A stretch of DNA of 64,000 bases. It comes from Paecilomyces variotii. Taxonomy: Eukaryota. The position numbers were made by a program, and so were the translations under genes. Below, piece by piece: positions 3,446 to 50,778 of this stretch; the stretch's first letter is position 1, and each line of letters starts with the position of its first letter. Location: NCBI GenBank assembly GCA_004022145.1, contig RCNU01000003.1; one strand, written 5' to 3'. The notes under the pieces are model-generated. The model searched no databases. It had not been told where the DNA came from and worked only from the letters and a program-made list of their open reading frames with translations.

Positions 3446-5067
3446 ATGATTTCTTTAATCGGGCATGTTATACTCTCGATCCTTTACATTGCGCTTGGGG
3501 CACAAAGCGAGTCGACGCTCAATGTTGGTCCACATTTTAAGTACAAGATTGAAGGTACATGTTCATATAATCATTGAATTGGCTCACCGTTGTTGACAGT
3601 CATCATTGGATCTTCACAGATTTGTCCGTAGACCTTCCATTTTCCCAACCAGTAACGTTTGCGCATTTGGAATGGCAGAGATGTCTTGCGCACTCTCATA
3701 ACGAGGTATATGGGATTTGCAACGGATCCACAAATGCGTTCAGAGACTAAGAGATTGAAAGCCTCTTGACATAGCTATATTGGGTTTCCCATACGACACG
3801 TCGACATCTTACCGTCCTGGTGCGAGATTTGGACCTCGCGGTATCCGTGCAGCTTCGTCGCGAGAAAAAAAGGGTCGAAGCTATAATTCACCATGGGGTG
3901 TCGATCCTTTCGAGCAAGGGCTTACCATTGTGAGTTTCCTACAGACCTTCAGAGGGCACTTTGCTAATTCCTGGAATAGATTGATTGTGGCGATATACCT
4001 ATTACACCGTTCGATGCAGAGCATGCGTTCAAGCAGATGGAGCAAGGATATAGACAGATCTTGTATCACAAGACTAGTGATATCTCTGGTCAGTCCCTTC
4101 CACTAATTTTCATAAAAACTCTTGACATTAATCACTCCATTCTAGATGGTTGGAAGCATCCCCGGATTCTTTCTCTCGGCGGTGACCATTCTATTGTGCT
4201 TCCAATTCTCCGTAGTTTGAAGACTGTATATGGCCCAATATCTGTCATCCATTTGGATTCTCATCTCGATACGTAGGTCCCCAGGGCTGACCCCAACATG
4301 GCGTTTCCTCTATATCGTGATTGACAACAGGTCCTTTTCAGTGGCTAATGTGGATATGCAGGTGGGATCCCTATGAGGGCTACATTGGAATCGCCTCGAA
4401 TCAGTCTGCCATAACACATGGGACATTCTTCTGGCATGCTAGCCGTGAAGGATGTATCAGCAAAGGCACAAGCGTCCATGGTGGTTTACGGACAAAGCTT
4501 TTCGTGAGTAGCTAGCTGAGTATAGTATCATTGAAGCGTTTCATTGCTGATATTGGCGCTATTCAAGTCATCCAAGGACTACGAGATCGATCAGGACGTG
4601 GGTTTCACGTTGATCGAGGCTCAAGAGATCGATGACATTGGTGTGAAGGGCATTGTAAACAAAGTCCGTACTACTGTGGGAGACACGCCAACGTACCTCA
4701 GTATTGATATCGACGGTAAGCAAGCTTGTCTTTTGGTCCATGTCGCTCCATCAAATCGTCTACCGTTCATCTTTTGGGACCATCGTGCTGAGAGATAATG
4801 GCAGTTTTGGATCCTTCCATTGCGCCAGCTACTGGTACTCCCGAATCAGGAGGCTGGACAACGCGCGAATTGAAACGCTTCATCAAGGGTCTTGAAGGTG
4901 TTCATCTAGTAGGCGCCGACGTGGTCGAGGTCTCTCCGCCGTACGACACTGTAGCGGAAACAACTAGCATTGCCGCTGCTGATCTTCTGGTGGATATTTT
5001 GGCATTGATGGCAAATGATAAGGACTTTGGGGGAGACGTGAGGGGTACCATGAAAGATGAGTTGTAG
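3446..5067 (+). CDS. Ureohydrolase (agmatinase/guanidinobutyrase-like, arginase family) with signal peptide and C-terminal KDEL; about 8 exons
   Basis: Motifs [48 protein letters not shown] and [12 protein letters not shown] lie on successive exons. ATG 3446 gives [21 protein letters not shown]; the protein ends MKDEL-stop. Confidence 0.92.
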
Positions 5068-7231
5068 GAGCAACGGTAACTATGTCTGGCATGCGAGAGG
5101 TCCTTGCCAACAGTTTCCCTATCAAGAACATCATGAAAATTTCAGACGGGCCCTCTTATGCGGCATACAGAGCAATAATAGCAATCGAAACTTAAGACAT
5201 GCTGCTTATTTAGGGCAACCAGTTCTGGTTGAGTAAGAATTTGACATACGTCATCGGCGACCCGAGTGCCTCGCAGATATACTCTACCTAATATATAGGC
5301 GTTTATTGCCAGAAGTACCATTTCCAGAAGCCATATTCCCGGACAATGCAATTAAAACTGGTCAAAAATATTCTCTGATCTCGCATGATAGATAGAAATA
5401 CTATCAAAGAATAAGTTAGCTCGCAGGGCGTTTTCTTTGTCCAACTGATTCCCCTTTCACAGACAATCTTACTGTGTAACACTTCTGACCGCTCTTGAAA
5501 TTTGAACGCCAGAATTAGGCTACTGATCTAGTACAACGTCGCTCAGACCTAGAGGAGAAAAGCCCTCTAGGTATGTCGGCACAGCATTGGTGATTCGGGC
5601 AAGGGTGTAGTCTGCTCCAGCGAAGTCGAGTTATGCCATAGCGAAAGAGCTTTAATCGCGGAACAGAGAAAGATCCACGGCTGGGGCCTCTTTGGGCCCA
5701 AATGACCCTGTGAATCGATCCTGAATCCCTACGTCTGTATACAATTCCGATACAAGAGCAGACCTGGATGTTGTGCGGAATCGGGAAAGTGGGGACAGCT
5801 GCCGCTTCTGCCAAGCCCGTCGGCAGCCAATTGAAGCACCACCACGTTTAATCGTATCACGACGTCTCGGCCTGTTGCAAACTGCCGGCTTCTTAGTGAC
5901 GGCTTCTCTGGTTCAATTCTTTTTACTGACCTCAATATTCCTGTCTAACCCATTCCTGTAGTGGTTGGACTGCTGCACCTTTAGAAATCCTCAGGCTCAG
6001 CAAACAGAATCTCCACCGGTGAAGGCATTTAATACCCGCCGCCTTGTCCGTGTCACCCGCTTTCCAGCTCTGTGGATGATATGCAGGGATATCCTTGAGA
6101 TAGTCTGTATGATCATTCTAGTAGGCTTCTCTGGCTGTTCCATACACGTGTATCTTGGAAGCTCCTGTCTTTCGGCCATGAGTGGACATACCTGAGCAGC
6201 TGTGTTTTGCTTTTTGCGTACATCTCACCAATCACGTACACTGATCGTCTCGGCGACATCGTCGTCCACACAACAAGCCTGATTCTTCAAAGACGGCTGG
6301 GGAATTTGCCGCCGTGATTTGCTCTAAGCTTTCTTCACCTTCCCAGGCACAGGACGTTCTTGGAAGAAGACACAGCCTTGGACCATCCAGCTTCCCTTCT
6401 CCACACCTGCTTCACGCACTCAAAATCCTTCCGGCCAACAGCATCATCTAGCGGTATGTCTATCTCTGGTTCCGCCACGTATTGGATCTTCTGTCCTTGA
6501 TATAGCTCCTTGATGGGCCTTGCTGATATGATCCGCATGAGAAAGCTCTCGACAGGTCGTCTTGACTGGCGTTTGGACTCGCGAGCACGAGACAGATAGC
6601 ATAATGGAGGTAAGCGATCATGTTCAAACCCGTCTCTTGGTTTCTGTTATCTGTTTTATTCCTTTTTTTCGAGCCTCCATCGAACCTTTTATTATTGGTG
6701 CCTGGGTTGCTGTCCTGTACCCGCGCGTACCGCCAGCGGATCCACGTTGATTGATGGGGTATTCCTATCTCTGATAAGCCTGTGATTCCCTTTACGGACT
6801 TTTGTCTTTGCATCTGTGGTACTTTCCTCTAAGGCTTGACCTCGCGAGGAGCGTTGACGAGTCTTCCCATGGGCTGGCGCGTGTTCTCCTGATCTCCTTG
6901 TTTCTTCGTTTGCGTTTGTGCCTCGAGAGCCTTCTTCATCCAGTTGCTAGAAGCGAGACCTTTGCGTTGTGAGAAAACTCTCATGTCGCCGTCAAGTGCA
7001 AAGGTCATGATGTTAAGTGCTCCTTTGAGGCTACAGCCATTTGACATCTTGTCACGGCAACCCGGAGTTGCCAGCACGTGATGCGTATGGGAGTATTCAC
7101 GACAAAGATCCTCAGTCTTGCTAGTGTTATAACTGTCTGAAAGCAAGCTACACTCTTCTTTCCACTGTCCATACCCTTATCTACAATCACACCCCCCTCC
7201 TGAGTGGCTGTTCGCTGGTCTGTTCGCTGGT

Positions 7232-29516: not shown

Positions 29517-30353
29517 TGTAATGGAAATAATATAACCGGGCCCGTGGTCTCTCTGTCTGGGGGTTCTCAGCAACAGACAGACGAACTGCTATCCGGAACA
29601 GCGCGAGCACCGGGGCTGGCGGAGACGGAGTTCAGGAGACAAGATACGGGACCGGGAGCTCGAACCAGCCTGGATCACCGGCCACCCCTCATGATATCGA
29701 CATCAGCACAGATTCGAGGGTCCAGAGCGAAGATCCCACGAGCCGTTAGGGCCAGCATCGAATCCGCGTTGGTGCTCGCCCAGCTGTCAACTTGTCAAGG
29801 CTGAAGCAGGCGGCATCACGTGCCGCCATGCGACCCGGGCGGTACGCGCATCACGTGGCGCCCCCATACCCGATGTGGCCTACGCGGCCTGAGGCTAGCG
29901 ACTTAGTCAGCCTTAGCGCCAACCGCGGGCGAACCAGCGACGTCGAAGCCCGCGGGCCAGACGCTGAACCCCTTAGAGTAGACAGACCCTCTACGGTCGA
30001 GAATGGTGAACGCTTCCCAAAGGACAACAAACCGCGCGCATCTGGTGAACGCCACTTGAGCGGAAGTTTTCAACGGTCGACCTTTGCTCCCGTCTTCTGT
30101 GGTGAAGAGGGAGCATTTCTGGACGACTTTGGACGGCTCTCGATCGCTCCGCAGCGGGTACCGATCGTCAGGAGCGAAGATCGGCCCTGAATGACATTGA
30201 TTCCCTAGAAGCGCTAGATACATCGCAACTGCTGCTGGGGACGTGAGAACGTGAGCAGCTGAAATTTGGTCGCAGAAGAAGCTCGATTTGGGACAGATAA
30301 ACAAAAGTGACGCTGATGCTACACCCTGCGCCTAACCAACGACACCCGCCAGG

Positions 30354-33300
30354 ATGCCCACCTCCTCGTCCGCAAGCGACAAATCCAGACAGACGTCGGC
30401 TGGTAAATCGTTCTTCGGACGGAAACTGCACAAGGATCGGACTGAGGACCATCGACATGAAGGAAACGGAGGTCTAGAGGCTCCCATTTCCATGGCGAGC
30501 TCGCCCGGATCGCGGACCTCACGCCATACGAAGAGGGGATCGGTACAGTCTATCGACTTGGGCAACGAGCCGGATGCTACCGGTCTTTCAATGACTGCAG
30601 GCGTTATCACATCGATCCCCTTTGAGAGTTTGCCAGCAGATCACAGATCTCCTATCCCCATTGAGACCGTGTCCAGGCCAGAATCGTCGCCGCGGAAGGA
30701 GCCTACGCCGAGCCATCTGGCAAAGGAAACATCGGACTTCCACCAATACCCCGTATGGAACCCTCCGGCACAACAAAATGTGTATTCGCATCCGACAGGG
30801 CCCCGTCCTCCACCTCATGTGTCAAATACAACAATGGCTGCAAGCTCCACTGGAGACAGAGGCACACGTTACCAACAATGGGGTCGACCGGGCAGTTCTG
30901 CGGCGAATGCGGGCTTCAGCCATCACTCTACTTCCACGGCGGATTCGTCATCAAATTCTCGAATATCTCTCGATCAAATGAGCATTCACTCGTCAGTTTC
31001 CTCCAACACGCGGGGCTCCAGCTATTTCTCGGATAATAATTCTTCTCGCACCCTTACCACATCCCATTCCGCCGACCGAAACACCCAATATAGCACCGCT
31101 AGCAATAGATACTCGAATCTACAAGGTTCTTGGTTACCAGGACAGCCCCTAGAGCCTCCGGTCCCACCGGTTCCACCGGAACAGTATTTGACTCGACCCA
31201 GAGACGACCGGGTGATCGACCAACTCTTCCTGGACCTCATGCAGAAGAGAGGCTGGCAGAATCTCCCAGAGCAGGCAAAGAGGCAGATGCTAGCATATCC
31301 CGCGTCGAAGAAATGGACCCTTGTCCACCAGGATCGATTGACCGAACTACAAGGTGAGCAGAGAAGAAAGAATAATGCCAGACAAACTTATGGTTCAGAG
31401 GCCCCAAGCGGGCTTCTGAGCCGATCAGAGGAGGAGGGAAGCCCTGAATGGTATGTGAGGAAGGTGATGGACGATACTATCACGTCGAAACAGCTTGGAA
31501 GCTTGAGTGTCAGTCTTCGGACGCAACCGATAAGTTGGGTAAAGGCATTTGTAGAGGCTCAAGGTCAAATCGCTTTGACGAATGTCCTCATGAAGATTAA
31601 CAGAAGGAAAGCTTCTGGACCTGTGCCTGTGGCTCCAACTTCAGGAGACAAAGATTTGGACCGTGAATATGACATAGCAAAGTGCCTCAAAGCATTGATG
31701 AACAACAAATATGGTGCCGATGATGCCCTTGCTCACCAGCAAGTCATTGTGGCACTCGCCTGCTCGCTGTTATCTCCACGCCTCAACACCAGAAAGCTGG
31801 TCAGTGAAGTATTGACTTTCCTCTGCCACTGGGCCGAAGGTCAGGGGCACCAGAAGGTCCTCCAGGCTATGGATCACGTCAAGAATCTCCAGGGAGAAAC
31901 TGGTCGTTTTGATGCATGGATGCGTATCGTCGAAGTCACCATCGATGGCCGTGGAAAGATGGGCAGTCTGGTTGGTGCCAGTGATGAATACCGAAGCGGG
32001 GGAATTGGTATGGAAAATCTCCTCATGGAATATGCGGTGGCTACAATGCTACTGATCAATATGTTGGTCGATGCGCCGGAAAATGACTTGCAGCTCCGGT
32101 GCCATATCCGGGCGCAGTTTACCTCCTGCGGTATCAAGCGGCTCCTGACGAAGATGGAGGGTTTCCAGTATGAAGTAATTGACAAGCAGGTCGAGCGGTT
32201 CAGAGAGAATGAAGCGATTGACTACGAGGATCTGCTGCAGCGGGAGAACAGCAGCATGAAGGACAGCATCGAGGGCGAGGTCAAGGATATGAATGATCCG
32301 ATGCAAATCACGGATGCGATTCAGTCCAGGATCCAGGGCACTCGATCACACGATTACTTCCTCTCTGCGATGCAGCATCTGCTGCTTATCCGAGAGAACT
32401 CAGGAGAGGACGGACTTCGCATGTTCCAGCTGGTGGATGCCATGCTCAGCTACGTGGCCATGGATAGGAGGCTTCCGGATCTGGATTTGCGCCAGGGATT
32501 GTCATTTACCGTTCAGAGTCTCCTGGACCGCTTGCATACGGACGCAGAAGCCCGACGAGCTTACGATGAATCGTTGGAAGCTCGCCAGGTGGCCGAGGCG
32601 GCTATCGCTGAGCGTGATGAGATGAGGGCGCAGGTGGAGATGGGCGCGGATGGCTTGGTCAAGAAGCTCCAAAAGCAGATTGAAGAGCAAACCGGCATCA
32701 TTGCGCTTCAACAGAGGCAGAACGAGTCACTGAAAGCCGAGCTCGCCGATGTCCAGAGGCTGCGCGGTCAGGAACTCCAGCGTAATGAACTGGAGACAAG
32801 AGAGCTGTATCTGATGCTCCGAGATGCCCAAGATATAGCTGCATCAAATGCCAAGAAGTCCGCTGACAACGACAAAGGAGAAGTTGACCCAGCACAGATG
32901 CGGGGTATCCTGGACCGCGAGAAACTCATGGAGAGACTGGAACGCCAGCTTGAGCGCACAAAGACACAGTTCAAGCTGGAAGGCAAGGTATGGGGTACAC
33001 ATGGACCTTCAGATCGTTTGCGCGAGTTGCGGGAGCAGATGGACGGAGATAATGACTTCAACGATGACTTTCAAAATAAAGCACGCAACCTCGACACAGG
33101 TACTCTGGGGGCCGTTCACCGGAAGAGGAGCCACGTACCTCAAGCAAAGGAAGATGCGGCTGAGAGTGCCGATGACCTTGGCGACGAAGATGTCGTATAT
33201 GAGAAGCCTCGCCTTATTGAACTACAACGCCCTCGCTTGGATCCAGAGAAGGCGAACGGTCTACTTGGCGAAATCGCGTCCAAAGTTCCCAAATATGATG

Positions 33301-35792
33301 CTGATGAGAAAGAGGCTGAGGGCACTTCTGAAGATGCTAAGGCCTCAGCAGAAGACCACGAGCCCAGTGTTGAGAACTCCGATGAGACCAAAGATGAGGC
33401 CAAGGCCGTCCCTGCACCACCACCACCACCACCTCCTCCTCCTCCTCCTCCCCCTCCCCCTCCAGGCAGCGTACAGGGTGTGCCGCCGCCTCCTCCTCCT
33501 CCTCCGCCGCCTCCACCACCTCCAGGTTCTGTTGCTGGAATTCCTCCTCCCCCTCCACCTCCTCCACCTCCGCCTCCTGGTGCCGGTATCCCTGGACCAC
33601 CACCGCCTCCTCCTCCACCACCAGGGCCTGGAGCTCCCCCTCCGCCGCCTCCCCCAGGTGGCCCAGTCGGCAGTTGGAGAACAAATTATTTGGTTGCAGA
33701 ACACACTGGGCCTACCGTTTATATGCCATCTATTCGACCTAAGAAGAAGCTCAAGGCGCTTCACTGGGAGAAGGTTGACACTCCTCAAGTAACTGTATGG
33801 GCTACTCACACGCCTACTCATGAAGACAAGGAGCGGAAGTACACCGAGCTAGCTAAGAAGGGTGTCCTGGACGAGGTTGAACGCTTGTTCATGGCCAAGG
33901 AGACAAAGATCCTTAAGGGCAGTGCAGCCGCCAAACAGCGAAAGGATAAGAAACAAATCATTTCCAATGATCTTTCGAAAACTTTCCAGATCGCCATGGC
34001 GAAATTCTCTCAGGTGCCTGTGGATGAACTGGTCCGCATGATCATCCACTGCGACACTGAGATTCTGGATAATAATGTTGTCATGGATTTCTTGCAGAGG
34101 GATGAACTTTGCACTATTCCTGACAACGTGGCGAAGATGATGGCACCCTACAGCAAGGATTGGACCGGTCCTGACGCTTTGAACTCGGAACGCGAACAAG
34201 ATATCAATGAGCTCACCCGTGAGGATCAAATCTATTTACAGACAGCCTTTGAACTCAACCACTACTGGAAGGCCCGTATGCGTGCTTTGGCTTTGACGCG
34301 GTCGTTTGAGCCTGACTATGATCATATTTCTGCTAAACTGAAGGATGTCGTTACAGTCAGTGAGTCCTTGCGCGACTCAGTATCACTGATGAACGTTCTC
34401 GGTTTGATCCTGGATATCGGTAACTTTATGAATGACTCGAACAAACAAGCCCAAGGTTTCAAGCTTAGCTCCCTGGCTCGTCTCGGTATGGTGAAAGATG
34501 ACAAGAATGAGTCCACTTTCGCCGACCTGGTGGAACGTATTGTCCGCAACCAATACCCCGAATGGCAGGGCTTTACAGACGAGATTGGAGGTGTTATCTC
34601 GGTTCAGAAATTAAACGTCGACCAGCTCAGGACGGACGCCAAGAAATATATCGACACCATCAAGAACGTACAGATGAGCTTAGATGCGGGTAACTTGAGC
34701 GATCCGAAGAAGTTTCATCCTCAAGATCGCGTCAGCCAGGTAGTCCAGCGCAGTATGAAAGAAGCTCGGCGGAAAGCAGAGCAGATGCAGCTGTATCTGG
34801 ACGATATGGTTAAGAGCTTCGACGATATTATGACTTTCTACGGCGAAGACAACACAGATGATAATGCCAGGCGAGACTTCTTCGCCAAGCTAGCTTCGTT
34901 CTTGCAAGAGTGGAAGGTAGGCCACCATTATTTTACTTTCCTCACGATTGCGCCTGTTCAGGATTGATACGCTAACGCATCTCACATATAGAAATCGAGA
35001 GAGAAGAATATCTCCTGGGAAGAAGCGAGGAAACGTACAGAAGCCTCGCTGGCGAGAAAACGCATCAATCCTGCCCTTGCGAATGGCGGTGGTCACGGTA
35101 CAGATAGTCCGAATTCACCATCAACCAGTGGAGCAATGGACTCTCTACTTGAGAAACTGCGAGCTGCAGCACCACAGGCTAGAGATCAACGTGATCGTCG
35201 TCGGCGCGCTAGGCTGAAGGAGCGCCACCAAGTCCGTGTTGCGTCTGGCCAAAAGATTCCAGAACTCGGTATAGAGGGTGAGGTCAATGCTGAAGGTGGT
35301 GACAAGGCAGATAGTGCTATGGGCACTGACGGTGGCCTGTTGACACCAAAATCACCTGGTGAAGACGGCAACGCTAGCGGTCAAGAGATCTCGGAGGGCG
35401 AAGACATCGCAGACCGCGCTGCAAGCATGTTGCAAGGTCTAAGAGGCAACAACGACACGGAGTCCCAGCGAGCAAGGAGGAAAGGAAGTGCCGAAGATGA
35501 GAGACGGCAACGCAGAATGAGAAGAAGAAATGGTGCAACTAGCGGCAGCAAGGATAGTGCAGACGGGTCAGCTTTGAACCCAGTGCAAGAGCCACCATCA
35601 CCAGCTAAAACCGACATGGCCGAGACAGACGATTCCGCCTTGTTGAGCCCGAGCAAGGATCAGCATTCTTCTCAACCACCATTGACGCCATCCATCATCG
35701 TGTCGCCCACGTTTGACCCTCCCCCCGCAGATGAATCTGCTGAATCCGCCGAGCACCCTTCCCCCACCCAACCCGCCGAACCCCAAGAGTGA
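30354..35792 (+). CDS. sepA: Formin (GBD/FH3, poly-Pro FH1, FH2, DAD), 2 exons
   Basis: 1537-aa ORF with SLRTQPISWV, polyproline FH1, KKKLKALHWEK and GNFMN/GFKLSSL. Intron 34917-34991 leads to the DAD motif MDSLLEKLR. Confidence 0.98.
33412..33657 (+). repeat. CCN-rich low-complexity repeat encoding the FH1 polyproline tracts
   Basis: Runs of CCT/CCA/CCG codons giving several poly-Pro blocks. Confidence 0.9.
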
Positions 35793-35994
35793 TCCCATGG
35801 GTTTTGGAGTCTCTTAATTCTAATGTCTGATAGGATTACTGATGTTCATGTGGAAATTCTTTGTATGGCGTATGTGTATAATGTTCTACTTCTGTCTGTC
35901 CATCGTGTCTGTCTCTGCCACTAGTTCCCAGAGCTATTGCTCAACATGTGCAGCGTGTGATGGATAGTATCTTGTTCCATATTTTACTGCCTCC

Positions 35995-43017: not shown

Positions 43018-43569
43018 AGCTGTCTTTGCTGTTCACGGTATATATATTTCCAAGCGAGCGTTCTATTGATAGATATGTTTGGTTTTGTAAGTAGCCTTTC
43101 TCAGACCAGTCGTTTCTGGTGTTGTGGCAGTTCCTTCGGTTGCTCTTTCAGTATTTGGAATTATCCACAACCGAGGCATACTGGAACCTATTTATCAGAG
43201 AGGAATATGACTCTATCCAGGAAGTTACACGATAACAATAGATTCGGGGAGTTGCCTCAGATCCGAGCATTGAACAATACCGATGCTCGTGAGTGTTCCC
43301 TTCCGTCGATCTCTTTAGTACAAAGGTGCTAGAAAGAATATATATTCCCTACAACCACAATCGAAAATTCGCGATGTCCTGCTGTTCCGCTTACATATCT
43401 TCTCTGATTACTTTCATGGAGTAGGTATAACATGAATAAACAGTCAAAGTGTGCATTACTATTGGTCCTCGCTACACGGCCCCAGAGCAATAAAAATAAT
43501 AGCGCATCATGACACTATCTAGAAACATTTTCAAGATAGACAAAAAGAACAAAAAAGAGCAAAAAGTAA

Positions 43570-43660
43570 TGGGGTGAACCGGGATCGAACCGGTGACCTT
43601 CAGATTTGCTTGGCTGAAGTGAACTTCAGTCTGACGCGCTCCCAACTACGCCACCGCCCC
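43570..43660 (-). tRNA. tRNA-Phe(GAA) with 18-nt intron
   Basis: GGGGCGGTGGCGTAGTTGGGAGCGCGTCAGACT-GAA-G[ttcacttcagccaagcaa]ATCTGAAGGTCACCGGTTCGATCCCGGTTCACCCCA folds as a cloverleaf. Intron at 43606-43623 after base 37; T-run Pol III terminator just downstream. Confidence 0.96.
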
Positions 43661-44639
43661 ATCTGATTGTGAAAGAAATTGCTCTCTAATGATTTTTCAT
43701 TGGAACAATAATACCATTACCTGAATCTAGGTTCTTGGAGTCTCTTGTTTTACGGTACATTCCGCCTCACTTCTACTCATCCATGTCGTGGATCTTTTAC
43801 ATCTAGAGAATCCCTGCTAACTACTATGGCCTCGACACGAACTCACATGACGTCAGAAACGGAAAAGGCAGGCTTCTGGAAGACTCAGCTGACAGTTCTA
43901 GCGTGGCTTGGCGAACGCTGCGCCCTGCAGAAGAGTCACGAATTGTAATTACCATATGTATGTTGCTTTCGTGATCATGTGTTTCATCGCGCTCAATAAT
44001 GACTCAAGATTCCTCAGGCCAGACGGGACAAACAGTCACAGAAGGGACGGAACTGCCGTTAGTGGTTTGCGCAGTCGAGGCCTCATGGTCGATCAGCGGC
44101 AAGAACAGAGCCATTTACTAACTAGAATACTAAATAGTAACTTCAAGGCGAGCCTCATTTTCACGGCACTCAGCTCCGGATTTCCCCGGGCGCAGCATCG
44201 TTATCATCTTAGCAATCCCGAGGGTTCAAGAGAGCAAAGTGCAGCTGATCGAATCCCGGATTCAATTTTAAGCCTCAGATACGAGGATGTGAAGTAATAC
44301 CGTTGTATGTACAATGAAGAAAACCAAGAGGACCGTCCCCCTTCCCAGACGAGAAGTCCTACTACCAGTCGAACTGTCGGCCCCCAATCCCACGTGGGAA
44401 ATCCATCGTACCTTGCAGAATAAGGCAGACAAATCCTCGCCTATCATAGATGCAGCGGGCTAATAATAATATAATGCCAAACAGCCCTCTTTTTCCCTTG
44501 CAGGACAGACACATTGTGCATATAGCCCTTGACCCCTGGACCACGCGAGAATAGAAAAAAACAAAAGTGCCAAATTATAATTTTGCTTGCGAAACACAGT
44601 AAGCTGGAGTGATCCTTGAATGCTGATACGCAGATATAA

Positions 44640-45240
44640 CTCGTCGTCAGTCGCCATCTAGTTAAAGACTAATTCTAACGAACTGCTGAAGACTATCAAA
44701 AAAGGGTTAGAAAGAAGGGAAAAGGCGCCCCAGGCGCATGTGAGTGATATCGTTAATTACTGCGCAGATAGTTATTAGATTTGATAGGTTCCATAATAAT
44801 ACCTGCCAGGGCCAAGTATTATAAGGACCACTAAACCGAGTTAGTGGCTGACAGTGTCACGCCTGGTCACTTAATTGCGGAGTTAACCGCGAATTACAGG
44901 ACTGTAATCGATCGATCCTTGCCAATCAGCGACAAGTCCAGTTCTATAATTATTTTTAGTATACCCCAAGACGCGGCAGTTTACAACTATATACCATACA
45001 GTATAAATCATACTATTTGCCAAAGGTGTAGAAGGTTCAGGGTCGCACTTCACGTATTACATATAAAACAAGAAATACAAAGTAACTAAAACCCCTGTAG
45101 TAGAGTAGGACTAGCAAGTATATACCATACTTAGAACTATTAAAGATACTATAACTAATTAGACCAATTAAGATTCTTACTCTTAAACAAAAAAAAAACC
45201 CCTCTTAGCATATTAAGTAAGACCCCTTTTCTAATTTACG
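44640..45240. mobile_element. AT-rich, TpA-rich degenerate segment, possibly a RIP-mutated transposon relic
   Basis: Visibly rich in TAA/TAG/TATA, no recognisable ORF, A-run at about 45188-45198. Compositional evidence only. Confidence 0.3.
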
Positions 45241-48022
45241 TTAGTATTGCGACGAACCATGCGAATATTCTAGGAACCAACCAGGATCATGGAACGCCTT
45301 TTGTCAGCTGATTCTGTTTTCTTGCTTAGTTAACTATACACCATCTGCTTCGAGTAGACATTTCCCTATCCAGTGACAGTTCTAGGAGTCGTAATGCTAC
45401 TTAAAATATACTTCTAATGTAAATTAGTTGCATAGCCCCATCTCATCGGGTCCAACGCTCAAGATAGTCTCTGGGGAAGTTGTTCCGTGCTTCTGCAAGG
45501 ATGAGCATTATTAATGGTCGAATATTGGTAATATGGAGATCGGGATCGGGGGGCCGTATTTTGTGAATAATGCACCGGACCATGTGGCGATTATTGAGTA
45601 AAGCATTAGATTAGATAGTAGTTATTAGTAACTAAACATACTGCTTAGTATGCGCGGTTAGGCCTTTTGGAGGCGTCACTTAAATCAGTTTAAGCATATA
45701 CTTTTTGTCTTTTGAATGGTCCGTGTGTCGTGTTTTTTGACTTTAGGATAGTCTACTGGTGACGGTGTAGTATACACAGGATTAAGATGTTAAGATATCT
45801 CGTCTTCTAAATCGTACACGGGGGGGCATCATACTACTGGAGTAATGAATATACATACATCCACTTCGGATCGATTCGCTCCCCGCTCAGATATGGCAAT
45901 TATAAATATGAACTGACCCGTCGCGGAATTTTTCCACAAGCCCTGCGAGTCTGTGCGACCATAAGCCACGTGGTGAGATTGCCATTTCCCAGATTATGGT
46001 TAATCCCTGTACTAATCTCAGCCTGAAGAGTTTGAGGAATAGTGGAAAAAAAAAGAATAATCATAAGGAAACCTCAGGGATGTGAATCGTGCATACATAC
46101 ATATGCAAGGGGCCACAAATATTACCCATGACGAAGAAAAAAAAAAAAAAAGAAAAAAAAAAAAAGAATAAGAACCATGGGTCGAATAAGTGGCAAGGCA
46201 TAATATTATCTGTGAACTCTTCTCCTCTATGGCAGTGTTCTAGACAAATGTCGATATATCTAACGTCAAACTTGCAGCGGCCCCGATCGGCATTGCAGCG
46301 GTAGTGGCGGGCTGGGGGCCGTTTTGTTTCTTTCTTTTTTCTTCCTTTTTTTTTTGGTGGACGGTACACACGCCTAAGTAATCGCCGTAATTTCCTAGAG
46401 TATGTTCTGGACGGGGATGACTCTTCGTTTCTCTTCTAATGCTGATAGGCTTTCTTATTGGTCTTTCAGTGTACATCGCGCGGGCTGTGCGCGATCGATG
46501 TATACTTGAACAGTTTGACTCGGGATGAGTAAACTCGAGACCGGCCCTAGGCAGCAGACTCTTGTGTAGGAGCAAGTAATTAACTGGCAGAAAACGCTCT
46601 GGACGAAGACAGTTGCCTACGGATCGAACTTGTCCGAACTGTCTCGTGCCTGCGATCGCGACAAATGGCGATGCAATGCGACAAGTAAGGCGCACGAAGA
46701 TTCTGCTTCAACGCGGATGAAGAATGAATCATCACATATTGTCATACTACAAGGCGATCTGATTTGACTGAATGGATACTTAGATCGGACCACTAAGTCA
46801 ATTAGGAGCCAGTGGGCTGTCCAAATAAATCGATCGGACGCCTCTTCAAGTGTTTTTTAGTGTAAAGTAATTTACAGTACCTACAGGGTTGATAATCATC
46901 CTAACAAATTAAGTAACTACTTACTTGTTCGAGACAATCACGGGGAACGCGGAAGGGACAATCCGGGGCAATGCCTCAGGGTCAGCTGTTTGTTTCCTTC
47001 TTTCTTTCCCGCGCTGAAAAATAATAATAATAATAATACCGGAATTACTAGACGATAAACCCGGGGCGCCGTTCAGCTGCTTCAAAACTCGATCCTTAAC
47101 TGTCTGGACAGTTCGCTACATCGCAGATAACTATGATATATCCGAAAAAAAAAAAAAAAAAGAAATTCGATTTGACAGAAAACCGCCTTATCTCCTACAA
47201 GAAATTACATCAGTGCTAGTAATCAGTATCGGTAACATAGTGAGAGTCGACTGTATGTAGGTATTCATATTCTATTCTTGCATAGCGCGGGCGCTTACCC
47301 AGGTAACAGGTAACTGTCTTACCGCTATGGGTCCAGTGAGCCTTGACTACCCGTTCTATCGTCCAACTGATGGGCGAAGATCTACTTCTTGAAGCTTTAT
47401 TGGTCAATGAGAAGCAAGTAATGGTATTGTACTGAGTAACTAGTTGTAATGATGATAACTTAACGGCGCCCGTACGGATAATGCCCGAGTTGAGTGGATG
47501 GGACGGAAATGTATGTATGTATGTATGTACACTTCAAAGTATGTACCTACCTAGGCATACAAGATAAGTAGATACCCTCAAAAAAGACATGGTATTAATA
47601 ATGGACCAGCTTCATGATCTATGTAATTAGTCAGTTAACTGATTACCACTCATCGCCCCCCTTCAGAGATTATCATGTCAGACTCAGACTTGCATTTTCT
47701 CTCTGAAGAATGACAACGACAGAACGTTTGCGTATGTGCGCTCTTCTCATCCTCGTCAGAGTTCAGGTGTCGTTCAGATTCGAGACCCATCGCTAGGGAG
47801 GCTTGGTTCCTTTTCAGGCCCACGGAGGCTGATGGCTCATCGGCGTCGGGCGCTAAGCCAGGGACCCTGGTGAGCACCCTGTTTACCTAGCTAGTGTAGC
47901 CCTTCAGGCGGGTCAGCAATACATAGTAACTATCGGGGTCCGTCGGTGCCTGGAGGGTCAGGTTGAGGATCTATGTCATCATAAAAGAAGAAAATAGTAT
48001 GGAGGCGCGTCTGCTGGAGTAG

Positions 48023-48030
48023 ATATATAA
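48023..48030 (+). promoter_or_regulatory. TATA box of the putative GRGGYN micropeptide transcript
   Basis: ATATATAA followed by a C/A/T-rich, ATG-free leader from about 48040 to 48199. Confidence 0.6.
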
Positions 48031-48199
48031 GCATGGTGGCTTCCTGTGTTTGAAGGATTCGATTCTCATCTATCATACCATACAAACTATACTACACTAC
48101 GCTACATATATACAAGCTCTCTATTATACAAGTCTATAATAGCTTCATCTATATCCTTTGCAAACACTGCCTCAGATCACCATTATATCCACTTCGTTC

Positions 48200-48223
48200 A
48201 TGGGTCGTGGCGGATACAACTAA
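48200..48223 (+). CDS. Putative 7-aa micropeptide MGRGGYN
   Basis: ATG GGT CGT GGC GGA TAC AAC TAA; first ATG of the presumed transcript; the motif recurs twice downstream with synonymous changes only. Confidence 0.6.
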   Translation: MGRGGYN

Positions 48224-48414
48224 AAGAATCTCATATCGCGCATAACCCACCATTGATCGAGTCAAGCAAAAGGCTCCAAGTGCGCAAGTCACCAACACAT
48301 ATCAGGCAGCTTTCAGTCGATAGACCCCAGACAGGCAAAACGCTGCCATCTCCGCTGCACCTACAAGAGCAGAACAGAACCTCTTCTTCCCGCCCTTTTT
48401 TGAAGACTGTGTCA

Positions 48415-48543
48415 ATGGGCCGAGGCGGTTACAACGTCCCCAGCGACAACCCGAACCCCAAGCCACCAGTATCTTCCTTCATCGAGTGTCGCTCCATGCA
48501 AGGTCGTGGCGGATATAACGACGTGCAGGACGAAGACGAGTGA
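48415..48543 (+). CDS. Putative 42-aa peptide with two GRGGYN motifs
   Basis: MGRGGYNVPSDNPNPKPPVSSFIECRSMQGRGGYNDVQDEDE; internal ATG at 48496 precedes the second motif. Confidence 0.6.
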   Translation: MGRGGYNVPSDNPNPKPPVSSFIECRSMQGRGGYNDVQDEDE

Positions 48544-48813
48544 ATCGGTACGAGTGCGCGGAGGGCGACGGACCGGCAGCATTGGAAGAGTTGGACTACG
48601 CGGCTTCGCGATGGGCGCGCGCAACGGAATACGGCATGATCGTATGAAGGCGAGCGGCCACAGTTGCAATGGCAGCTGTGGCCCGCAGGTGGAAAGAGTC
48701 AAGTATCCGCAGTGGAGGGAGGAGCGGATATCGAAGTCGCGGAATTTGGGTCATCGTTTGCCAACTTCTGGTCGATCGTGTTTTTTGGACATTCTGTCAT
48801 TTCGCAACGTGGA

Positions 48814-50778
48814 TCATTTGCCGACACAGAACCTACACGGAGAAACCAAATTGTCAGTATCGCCGTGGATAGTATCTTCATCGATGCGGTCTCGTACTTC
48901 TCGAATACGACACCTAGGACGTCCTCCACGTCGCCGCTCTCGCCTCTGCCGGTGATCCGGGAGAGACTGTCTGCCGCAAACCGCAGGTGTTCCGCCGCTG
49001 TCACGATATCCACGTCTGTTACGATACCCCCGTCTGTCTCGAGCATTGCATCATCTGGAGTTTTGGGTATAGAGGTCTGATTCAAGAAGTCATCAAGATG
49101 TTCAGCGCATTTCTGTAGATTAGAACTTTGTCTGTGTGTTACTCCAAGAGAATCCTCCCAGTAGGAAATGTTGAATTGTTCGTTTCCTTCTTCCATTCCC
49201 ACTGGTGCCGCGATCTTCTCAAAGTTTGTAATAAGCCCATTTAGGAAATTCTGCATCATGCCTGGATCAGGGTCACTAGCAGACTCGTCCTGCGCTTCCT
49301 TGCATGAGATAGCATAGATCCGATCTTGTGGCACGTCGGGAAATAACGTGCTGATGGTATCGGCCAGACTCTGCGGGATCCGACCGGCCTCGTGGCGCTC
49401 AGTCCGGGGTAGCCTGTCAGACTTATTAATAGCAACGATGATGCACTTCCTCAATTCAGAGCAACTCTTAACAGCGTCCAGGACCTCTGGCTCAACTGAC
49501 AATCGATAGGCTTCACCGTTGCGCCCTTCTTCCAACGAAAGGACGACAATGACAACATCAGACTCCATGGCCCGGGCTTTGGCACGTCGAATACCTTCTT
49601 TTTCAACGGCTCCAATGGTTACAGTGCCTTCAGCCGACTCGGAGCGCAGCCCTGCCATGTCCCCGAGCTTACAATACCAACCTCCGAGATCGACACCGAC
49701 GTCCACGATGTCGCGCGTGGTTCCCTCCTCGGTACTGACAATGGCTGCCTCCTTACCAACTATCCTATTGAGCAAGGAGCTTTTCCCGGCATTTGGCGCA
49801 CCCAGTAGCGCGACTTTGATTCCATTGCGCAAAAGCTCGCCCTTTGAGGCGTTTTGTATATGCGCGCGAATCTGTCGTTGCAAAGCACGCACCTGCTTTG
49901 CGACAGACTCGACCAGCTCATCTGACGACTCATCGAAGTGCTGATCTTCTGAAAAATCAATCAGCGCCTCAAGCTCCCCACGTGCGTAGAGAAGTTGTTG
50001 ACGCCAGGCCTCATAACGCTTGGAAAGCGCGTCACTCGCACCTCGCACAGCGAGTCGTCGTTGCTGTTCCGTATCGGCCGAGAGTGTATCGCCCAGCGCT
50101 TCAATCTGCGGCAGGTCAAGCCGGTTATTCATAAAGGCACGTCGTGTGAATTCTCCTGGTTCCGCATAGCGGATCAAGCGTTCGGGTCCGCTACATTTGG
50201 ATATAGCAGTGAGAACAGCCTTGACAATCGCTGGGCCACCATGCAAATGTAGCTCAAGTATATCCTCTCCTGTAACAGTCTTTGGACTTGGAAAGTATAA
50301 GACCAAGGCGCCGGCGTCAAGGACTGTATTCCTGGAGGGTTTCTGGGTCGGGTCGTAGAGCGTGCGGAGAGTTGCAACACGAGGTTTAGGAAGCGGTGAC
50401 CCTGGGCAAAGAGCTTGGTAGATCTGGACAGAGGAAGGCCTGTAAGTTATCTGCGAGATACAACCACAACACAAAAATCTAGTAACAGACCTGTACACAC
50501 GCCGGGCCAGATACCCTCGCGACTGCTATAGCAGCCCTCCCAGAAGCCGTAGAGAGAGCATATATTGTGGAGTCCGCATCTGATACGAACCGCACCGACG
50601 TTGAGGAGGAGAAGTGCCGAATCCTAGTCAGATTCTTACCCCGCAGCAGCGTTGACCCCGAGCTTCTCGGGATGGAGACGGCGTCTAGAGCTCCCAATAG
50701 ACGCTGCGCACCAAACGCGACGCGCGGGCCCTGAAGAGATAAAGCCCGGCGGGCAGTGCTGCTAATAGAGCGTATCAT
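48814..50778 (-). CDS. MSS1: Mitochondrial tRNA-modification GTPase MnmE/TrmE, 3 exons
   Basis: STIYALSTASGRAAIAV, TGEDILELHLHGG, GEFTRRAF, GAPNAGKSS, GTTRD, DMAG and NKSD. The last intron (48897-48833) restores the terminal FCVGK; intron 1 at 50490-50424. Confidence 0.97.

Follow-up and report, generated by a model that had tools for sequence, protein, structure and literature searches.

The question raised by positions 48023-48543 of a 64,000-nucleotide (nt) stretch of Paecilomyces variotii DNA (contig RCNU01000003.1; the whole stretch is hereafter called the window) is why one hexapeptide, GRGGYN, should be encoded three times within so short an interval, each time close behind an ATG. Functional micropeptides and translated upstream open reading frames (uORFs) are well documented in animals and plants, with few cases from filamentous fungi. 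On balance our data favour a + strand micropeptide gene with two cistrons, a 7-codon uORF and a second open reading frame (ORF) for a disordered protein of 42 amino acids, in which the hexapeptide would be the selected, ligand-like unit. Three lines of evidence, which are set out below together with the alternatives, leave coding on the + strand as the sole reading that accounts for the sequence: start and stop codons are conserved, the variation is purely synonymous, and the locus belongs to a protein family.

Architecture of the locus

The elements of the locus that are needed for the argument are the following.

48023-48030, + strand: TATA-like box ATATATAA, read in the sequence; putative promoter element
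48041-48199, + strand: presumed 5' leader, free of ATG according to the ATG list; 48041 and 48049 are the first bases covered by complementary DNA (cDNA) contigs, one from each of two studies
48200-48223, + strand: 7-codon uORF, MGRGGYN-stop, with copy 1 of the motif at 48203-48220
48224-48414, + strand: spacer of 191 nt between uORF and main ORF, free of ATG according to the ATG list
48415-48543, + strand: main ORF of 42 codons (42 amino acids), with copy 2 at 48418-48435 and copy 3 at 48502-48519
48496-48498, + strand: internal in-frame ATG before copy 3 (MQGRGGYN), reading ATG CAA GGT CGT GGC GGA TAT AAC

A six-frame search of the window found GRGGYN to start at 48203, 48418 and 48502 (+ strand) and nowhere else, and 300 simulated 64-kb windows with the same dinucleotide statistics contained a single match (mean 0.003 per window), so the three ATG-proximal copies reported by the first-pass annotation are real. 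The uORF reads ATG GGT CGT GGC GGA TAC AAC TAA, and the main ORF opens at 48415 with ATG GGC CGA GGC GGT TAC AAC (MGRGGYN), followed by a 22-residue linker rich in Pro and Ser, a further GRGGYN, an acidic tail and the stop. As had been described, the three copies vary in four columns, all of them synonymous third positions, and beyond the ATG and a T at -3 their flanks have nothing in common. Copies 1 and 3 differ by a single base; the preceding residues are M, M and Q and the following ones a stop, V and D.

The + strand ATGs within 48000-48650 lie at 48033, 48200, 48415, 48496, 48611, 48636 and 48644, the one at 48496 being in the same frame as that at 48415. The leader is indeed free of ATG, as first stated; the sole ATG between the TATA box and 48200 is that at 48033, 3 nt behind the box. 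In shuffled sequence the number of ATGs in leader and spacer together (48041-48414) falls to one or none in 36 of 2000 cases. An intron joining copy 1 to copy 2 was considered and rejected, as no GT follows the motif and no joint is present in a cDNA contig spanning 48049-48830. An AlphaFold2 model of the 42-residue protein, built from eight sequences, has no secondary structure (predicted local distance difference test score 63.7, predicted template modelling score 0.12), which fits disorder and is weak evidence for it.

Conservation in related loci

A scan of metagenomes returned five loci, of which L001 is 97-98% identical to the window and L002-L005 are four identical copies from one other species, represented below by L002. 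In the latter the downstream convergent gene is again MnmE/MSS1 (303/427 identical residues, 71%), and the main ORF (5001-5135) encodes a protein 57% identical to that of the window. A mini-ORF, ATG-GRGGYN-TAA, occupies 4849-4872, 152 nt upstream of the main ATG and in a different frame from the main ORF; like the uORF of the window it is preceded by a Phe codon. The TATA-like ATATATAA of the window aligns with TATATATA about 220 nt upstream of the mini-ORF, and from there to the end of the main ORF the only ATGs of L002 are those at 4849, 5001 and 5091. The free-standing 7-codon ORF and its ATG-poor leader and spacer, as claimed for the window, are thus conserved in a second species. In both L001 and L002 the uORF keeps its ATG, its TAA and the context CGTTCATGG, and between the window and L002 it shows four synonymous and no non-synonymous differences. 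The spacer, 191 nt in the window versus 128 nt in L002, is ATG-free in both and cannot be aligned.

A sensitive blastn comparison of about 1 kb around the locus, window versus L002, gave three significant orthologous blocks, namely the segment from copy 3 over the acidic tail as far as the stop (E = 3e-12), the start of the main ORF, GTCAATGGGCCGAGGCGG.TACAAC (E = 2e-7), and the uORF including its context and its stop (E = 4e-5); beyond these, only cross-matches between copies or chance-level matches were obtained in that interval. Aligning the copies from the window, L001 and L002, nine in all, shows variation in five of the 18 columns, each a third position (P = 7e-4). This pattern bears out the earlier proposal that it is the peptide that is under selection, as opposed to a DNA or RNA motif, and that the copies do not stem from a recent duplication, since L002 retains all copies with synonymous changes only in DNA that is otherwise unalignable. 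A decaying, functionless relic of a recent local duplication, to which the single-base difference between copies 1 and 3 of the window might point, is for the same reason extremely improbable, being already contradicted by the copies of L002, which have diverged at four of six third positions and nowhere else.

The closer comparison, between the window and L001, gave the following differences.

Leader: 13 substitutions in 159 nt and three indels, the most variable part
Spacer: 10 substitutions in 191 nt
uORF: 1 substitution in 24 nt, synonymous
Main ORF: 2 substitutions in 129 nt, the least changed part

The frame of the main ORF is free of stops over 170 codons (48031-48543, + strand), a length that stays open in 4 of 2000 shuffles. 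A protein extended at its N-terminus, or begun at a non-AUG codon, was nevertheless rejected, because L001 (97% identical) carries stops and frame-shifting indels of 5 and 10 nt there and the translation of the same frame in L002 is unrelated; the openness is probably due to chance.

The ATG before copy 3 is kept in L002 (5091), with a T at -3. Indeed a T occupies -3 in all nine ATGs of the three loci (9/9), and in fungi this is a weak start context. As a separate observation, a stretch coding for DN.NPNP after copy 2 (48444-48464) matches positions 4824-4844 of L002 (blastn, E = 0.03), where it lies directly upstream of the mini-ORF and in the mini-ORF frame. The match may hint that a three-copy gene gave rise to the uORF through permutation or tandem duplication; alternatively, it may be a chance similarity of low-complexity sequence.

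A family of small fungal proteins built on GRGGYN

A word-indexed protein search near the query length gave one relative, P0001 (65 residues), with two GRGGYN copies 22 residues apart, which is the spacing of the window. An exhaustive phmmer search over 1.84 billion representatives returned nine proteins at E <= 1e-3, seven of which are small (40-75 residues), hold at least two GRGGYN and share one shape, MGRGGYN.P, a linker, (M)QGRGGYND and an acidic tail. E-values were 7.8e-9 to P0003 and 2.3e-5 to 5e-4 to P0004, P0005, P0007, P0008 and P0009, and the similarity extends beyond the motif, as the acidic tail and P9 align too. We set aside P0002, which is the window's own frame in a 165-residue, prokaryote-style call and the only form in which the 42-residue ORF is present in the protein collections, and P0006 (142 residues), a spurious match without GRGGYN. 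The invariant columns of the resulting eight-sequence alignment (A1) are M1-N7, P9 and G30-N35.

The relatives that are annotated in fungal genomes, XP_069285479.1/KAL2007231.1 from Thermoascus crustaceus (59 residues) and XHF96897.1 from Aspergillus wentii (75 residues), are all filed as "hypothetical protein". The first-pass annotation, which had called the system unannotated, was accordingly right in that it carries no name and no Pfam family, and wrong in that relatives are already on record. Pfam gave nothing above threshold for the 16 family members examined, and the ESM Atlas gave no usable match.

A profile search among 2667 candidates extended the family to 101 proteins at E <= 1, all with at least one exact GRGGYN and with 285 copies in total. 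One, two, three, four, five and six copies occur in 3, 31, 55, 6, 5 and 1 of them, respectively, so that 98/101 hold at least two, the number found in the window's main ORF. The motif followed by the stop is the exact C-terminus in 70/101 and MGRGGYN is the N-terminus in 15/101. Copies are mostly preceded by F, D, M, Q or L and followed by R, a stop, G, A or D. Named members belong to Aspergillus, Thermoascus and Exophiala (Eurotiomycetes), to Glarea, Cadophora, Hyphodiscus, Venustampulla, Bisporella, Rutstroemia and Rhexocercosporidium, to Aureobasidium (Dothideomycetes) and, in one case, to Mycena. With lineages looked up for four genera (Thermoascus, Glarea of the Helotiales, Aureobasidium and Exophiala), the family spans the Eurotiales, Chaetothyriales, Helotiales and Dothideales, that is, Eurotiomycetes, Leotiomycetes and Dothideomycetes; no relative outside the fungi was found in the phmmer and profile searches. 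The invariance of GRGGYN in these small proteins of three fungal classes adds to the case for selection at the peptide level. By its sequence the 42-residue ORF belongs to this uncharacterised family, the members of which are short, disordered proteins of fungi that have nothing invariant in common except GRGGYN, repeated two to six times.

The family also bears on the number of starts. Where the window has a Met before copy 3, P0008, P0017, P0018, P0001 and P0032 carry L, I or R and the Helotiales proteins have F; this residue is therefore more likely an internal Met at a hydrophobic position of the motif than a start codon at 48496. The locus thus counts two ORFs and not three, the uORF and that of the 42-residue protein.

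The uORF is linked to the family because 70/101 members end in GRGGYN-stop and the uORF gives such a copy. The main ORF, with its acidic tail, has no free C-terminal Asn, and the uORF has one in the window, L001 and L002, which suggests that the uORF may supply the "C-terminal copy" that the Eurotiales type of main ORF lacks. The uORF is conserved as a peptide, as are its stop and its weak start context, and it is separated from the main AUG by an AUG-free distance of 191 nt in the window and 128 nt in L002. These features would also suit a regulatory uORF, in which the nascent peptide, or translation as such, gates the 42-residue ORF; the uORF product would then have no function of its own and only the 42-residue ORF would encode an effector. 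We regard this as unlikely, as stalling in the ribosomal tunnel leaves unexplained why the uORF peptide is the very motif that the main ORF carries twice and relatives up to six times. In addition, 70/101 relatives have the motif directly before their own stop.

An antisense transcript of MSS1 crosses the locus

Two cDNA metatranscriptomes of different studies (X8 and X12), both with unstranded contigs, contain the locus. In X8, a 908-nt contig (record 8) joins 48049-48830 to 48896-49021 across 65 skipped bases, and the skipped segment ends in GT..AG on the minus strand. In X12, a 609-nt contig matches 48041-48629 without a difference and has before 48041 a loose end of 11 untemplated T (+ strand), resembling the poly(A) tail of a minus-strand RNA. 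After the 11 T this loose end continues with a 9-base copy of 48045-48053, perhaps a library or assembly artefact. The coding part of MSS1 is mostly uncovered in X12 while 48041-48629 is covered, which cannot be read as relative expression. The features of the minus strand are as follows.

48041-48813, - strand: antisense RNA, the 3' untranslated extension of the MSS1/MnmE mRNA, in X8 and X12, whose poly(A)-like end lies near 48041
48814-48816, - strand: stop codon of MSS1 after splicing; the spliced translation ends EKFCVGK-stop
48833-48897, - strand: MSS1 intron of 65 nt, GT..AG, just before the last six codons

The locus is therefore traversed along its full length by a minus-strand RNA that is continuous with MSS1 and terminates next to the TATA box; it is a clean case in which the mRNA of a convergent gene runs antisense through an entire neighbouring gene. 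The product of MSS1 has MnmE domains, and FCVGK is the canonical MnmE ending; the end of MSS1 had previously been read at 48699, an artefact of the unspliced reading, and is moved to 48814-48816 once the intron is removed. On the minus strand, strings similar to TGTATATATGTA and TATAATAG occur in the TA-rich leader at 48060-48135, a short way upstream of the poly(A)-like end; we take them to resemble yeast 3'-end efficiency elements, and the same DNA may serve as the 5' leader on the + strand and as the terminator of MSS1. The X8 contig also contains an "opposite strands" joint at 50317-50430, inside the 5' region of MSS1, which is probably a fold-back library artefact.

These contigs raise the alternative that the repeats are non-coding, as RNA or DNA elements of a long MSS1 3' untranslated region or of an antisense transcript. 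It agrees with the RNA contigs in which the locus is continuous with spliced MSS1 mRNA of the minus strand, with a poly(A)-like end lying at 48041 and with the synteny of MSS1 in L002. We hold it to be very improbable, because all variation is synonymous in the + frame, the starts and stops of the + strand ORFs are conserved, the peptide motif recurs in 101 proteins of unrelated nucleotide context, and the minus frame lacks a conserved peptide. Coding on the antisense strand (a 56-residue minus ORF at 48412-48582) was likewise rejected: both species keep this frame open, yet the peptide that it would encode is not conserved. A search of Rfam over 46500-49500 at E <= 1 gave only a weak mir-297 match, the source of which is a (TGTA)n microsatellite at 47509-47535.

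A two-cistron model and the evidence that weighs on it

In the micropeptide gene that we favour, a single mRNA, started behind the TATA box at 48023, would carry both cistrons, the first consisting of Met and the motif alone and the second of the 42-codon ORF with the motif at its N-terminus and a further copy before the acidic tail. Scanning ribosomes would meet no other AUG, and the contexts are weak (T at -3) and the first ORF very short. Given these weak contexts, a uORF of seven codons and an AUG-free spacer, both cistrons should therefore be translatable, with leaky scanning and re-initiation allowing both to be made. The motif would then act in one of two forms, either free, as the uORF product, whose C-terminal Asn is free like that of most relatives, or tethered, with several copies in one protein. 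Because no signal peptide is present, its action would most likely be intracellular.

Several points weigh against this reading. The model presumes that the + strand is transcribed, that both ORFs are translated and that the peptide acts in this way, and the conserved cellular partner into which the hexapeptide would fit as a ligand-like short linear motif is hypothetical. The only strand marks in the RNA data, the minus-strand intron and the T-run before 48041, both point to the minus-strand MSS1 transcript; as the contigs are unstranded, a + strand mRNA from the same start is therefore neither shown nor excluded by them. A weak hint of a transcript boundary comes from the contig starts at 48041 and 48049, where contigs of the DNA-like runs X1 and X2 continue; these two runs, with contigs of 14 kb and 3.7 kb, were rejected as evidence of transcription, since they cover genes and intergenic DNA alike. 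The DNA of relatives comprises two loci, one of them 97% identical, so the conservation of the uORF rests on one independent species, in which the depletion of ATG is moreover modest (154 of 2000 shuffles). The counts for the 101 proteins are biased, as the profile itself selects for the motif and many start codons were set by automatic callers, and some Aspergillus gene models (P0012, P0014 and P0015) have in-frame ATGs upstream. Finally, 4 of the 101 proteins (P0055, P0059, P0087 and P0102), one of them from the basidiomycete Mycena vulgaris, begin with a signal peptide followed by two to four copies of GR(G/S)GYN, each preceded by Arg or Lys-Arg, and these secreted-looking relatives argue that the motif acts outside the cytosol in some fungi.

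Genomic neighbourhood and the possibility of a processed precursor

The four relatives with signal peptides lead to a further alternative, in which the proteins are precursors of a released and possibly exported hexapeptide, similar to a pheromone, a hormone or a ribosomally synthesised and post-translationally modified peptide (RiPP), with cleavage after Asn and before Gly, non-classical export and direct synthesis of the peptide by the uORF. Six strictly invariant residues between variable spacers are the pattern of a multi-copy peptide precursor, and copies lie at the extreme N-terminus (15/101) or C-terminus (70/101) of the protein. Against it, no conserved cleavage site adjoins the motif, and the conservation of the acidic linkers within each order fits a protein that stays intact. 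The locus moreover has no signal peptide, its ORF starting MGRGGYN without a hydrophobic stretch, and no Kex2 site, as no dibasic residues (KR/RR) flank the copies; both absences had been recorded in the first description and hold.

The surrounding genes point the same way. A Pfam scan of 27 stop-to-stop frames between 24 and 63 kb (at least 200 residues, plus shorter ones at 41-48 kb), in which frames below 90 residues and spliced genes are incompletely covered, matched no DUF3328 (UstYa-type) domain, in line with the earlier statement that such a neighbour is lacking, and no peptidase, methyltransferase or transporter clustered as a tailoring gene was present among the frames scanned. Taken with the evidence from the proteins themselves, this makes a processed precursor quite unlikely in our judgement, and we retain the two-cistron gene as the better reading.

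The neighbours of the locus include the convergent MnmE gene and an aconitase-family gene. A formin (sepA-like) gene lies at 30336-35800; it had been taken to adjoin MSS1, and in fact glycosyltransferase-like, DUF6540 and APH-like genes and about 5 kb of gene-poor DNA separate it from the locus. Within this gene-poor DNA, 43300-48000 holds no frame of 160 or more residues and has a lower G+C content (0.37-0.47), with long A/T runs near 46100-46170.

Comparison with known systems

The closest counterparts are the Thermoascus and Aspergillus hypothetical proteins and the metagenomic P0005, P0007 and P0009, which are similar at the level of orthologues and share MGRGGYN.P, the Pro/Ser linker, (M)QGRGGYND and the acidic tail; the Thermoascus protein differs in having three copies in one ORF. 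None of these hypothetical proteins has a name, a Pfam family or a paper, and literature searches by the motif, related strings and locus tags returned no paper on such fungal peptides, supplements, where surveys of Kex2 repeats might list the motif, being outside their scope.

The combination of RGG with Tyr is typical of disordered RNA-binding regions and of regions bound by transportin. The same six letters, GRGGYN, occur in a proline-tyrosine nuclear localisation signal (PY-NLS), that of yeast Hrp1, according to a passage of PMC8140498. The 42-residue sequence differs from such signals and from RGG or glycine- and arginine-rich (GAR) boxes in having no PY (R-x(2-5)-P-Y), no long GAR array and no RNA-binding domain, its RGG units being single, and whereas generic RGG boxes are not strictly invariant, all six residues of GRGGYN are invariant here. 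Methylation of the arginine, like processing of the peptide, both raised in the first description, is conjectural.

In Kex2-processed repeat proteins, alpha-factor-type pheromone precursors and dikaritin (ustiloxin-type) RiPP precursors, multiple copies of a short peptide lie between spacers. The family resembles them in its exact copies of a short Tyr-containing peptide between variable or acidic spacers and, in 4/101 members, in a signal peptide with Arg or Lys-Arg before the copies; unlike them, the locus and 97/101 relatives have neither a signal peptide nor dibasic sites.

The hexapeptide uORF of S-adenosylmethionine decarboxylase and the fungal arginine attenuator peptide are precedents for uORFs conserved as peptides. 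Common to them and the uORF described here are a very short upstream ORF with a conserved peptide, a weak start context and a location on the same presumed mRNA as the ORF that follows. The differences are that the downstream ORF here encodes a 42-residue protein repeating the uORF peptide, not an enzyme, and that elsewhere the motif is repeated many times within single proteins.

The tarsal-less/polished rice/mille-pattes RNAs of arthropods carry several tiny ORFs that encode the same short conserved motif, and no long ORF. The P. variotii locus is similar in its tandem tiny ORFs with a shared motif, in its conservation at the peptide level and in the lack of a long ORF, a single + strand mRNA and its translation being presumed here. 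It differs in that the motif is another one, without sequence similarity, in that there are two cistrons only, and in that most fungal lineages fuse all copies in one ORF of 40-120 residues. Nevertheless, in at least two species of Eurotiales one copy is a free-standing 7-codon ORF under purifying selection, and the motif is invariant across three ascomycete classes in proteins small enough to escape most annotations, so gene finders should keep ORFs of this size. The locus thus offers a concrete, testable case of a candidate fungal bicistronic micropeptide mRNA, with a peptide short enough to be synthesised for the finding of partners. A broader and rather doubtful proposal would make GRGGYN a hexapeptide effector of ribosomal origin, shared by the sampled classes of filamentous ascomycetes and delivered in two to six doses per mRNA that are either fused in one microprotein or, in the Eurotiales, split over cistrons of 7 and 42 codons. 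If this were true, the free C-terminal Asn would be part of the recognition by a receptor or enzyme, and the peptide would be a leaderless peptide signal or the fungal counterpart of the tarsal-less/polished rice peptides of arthropods.

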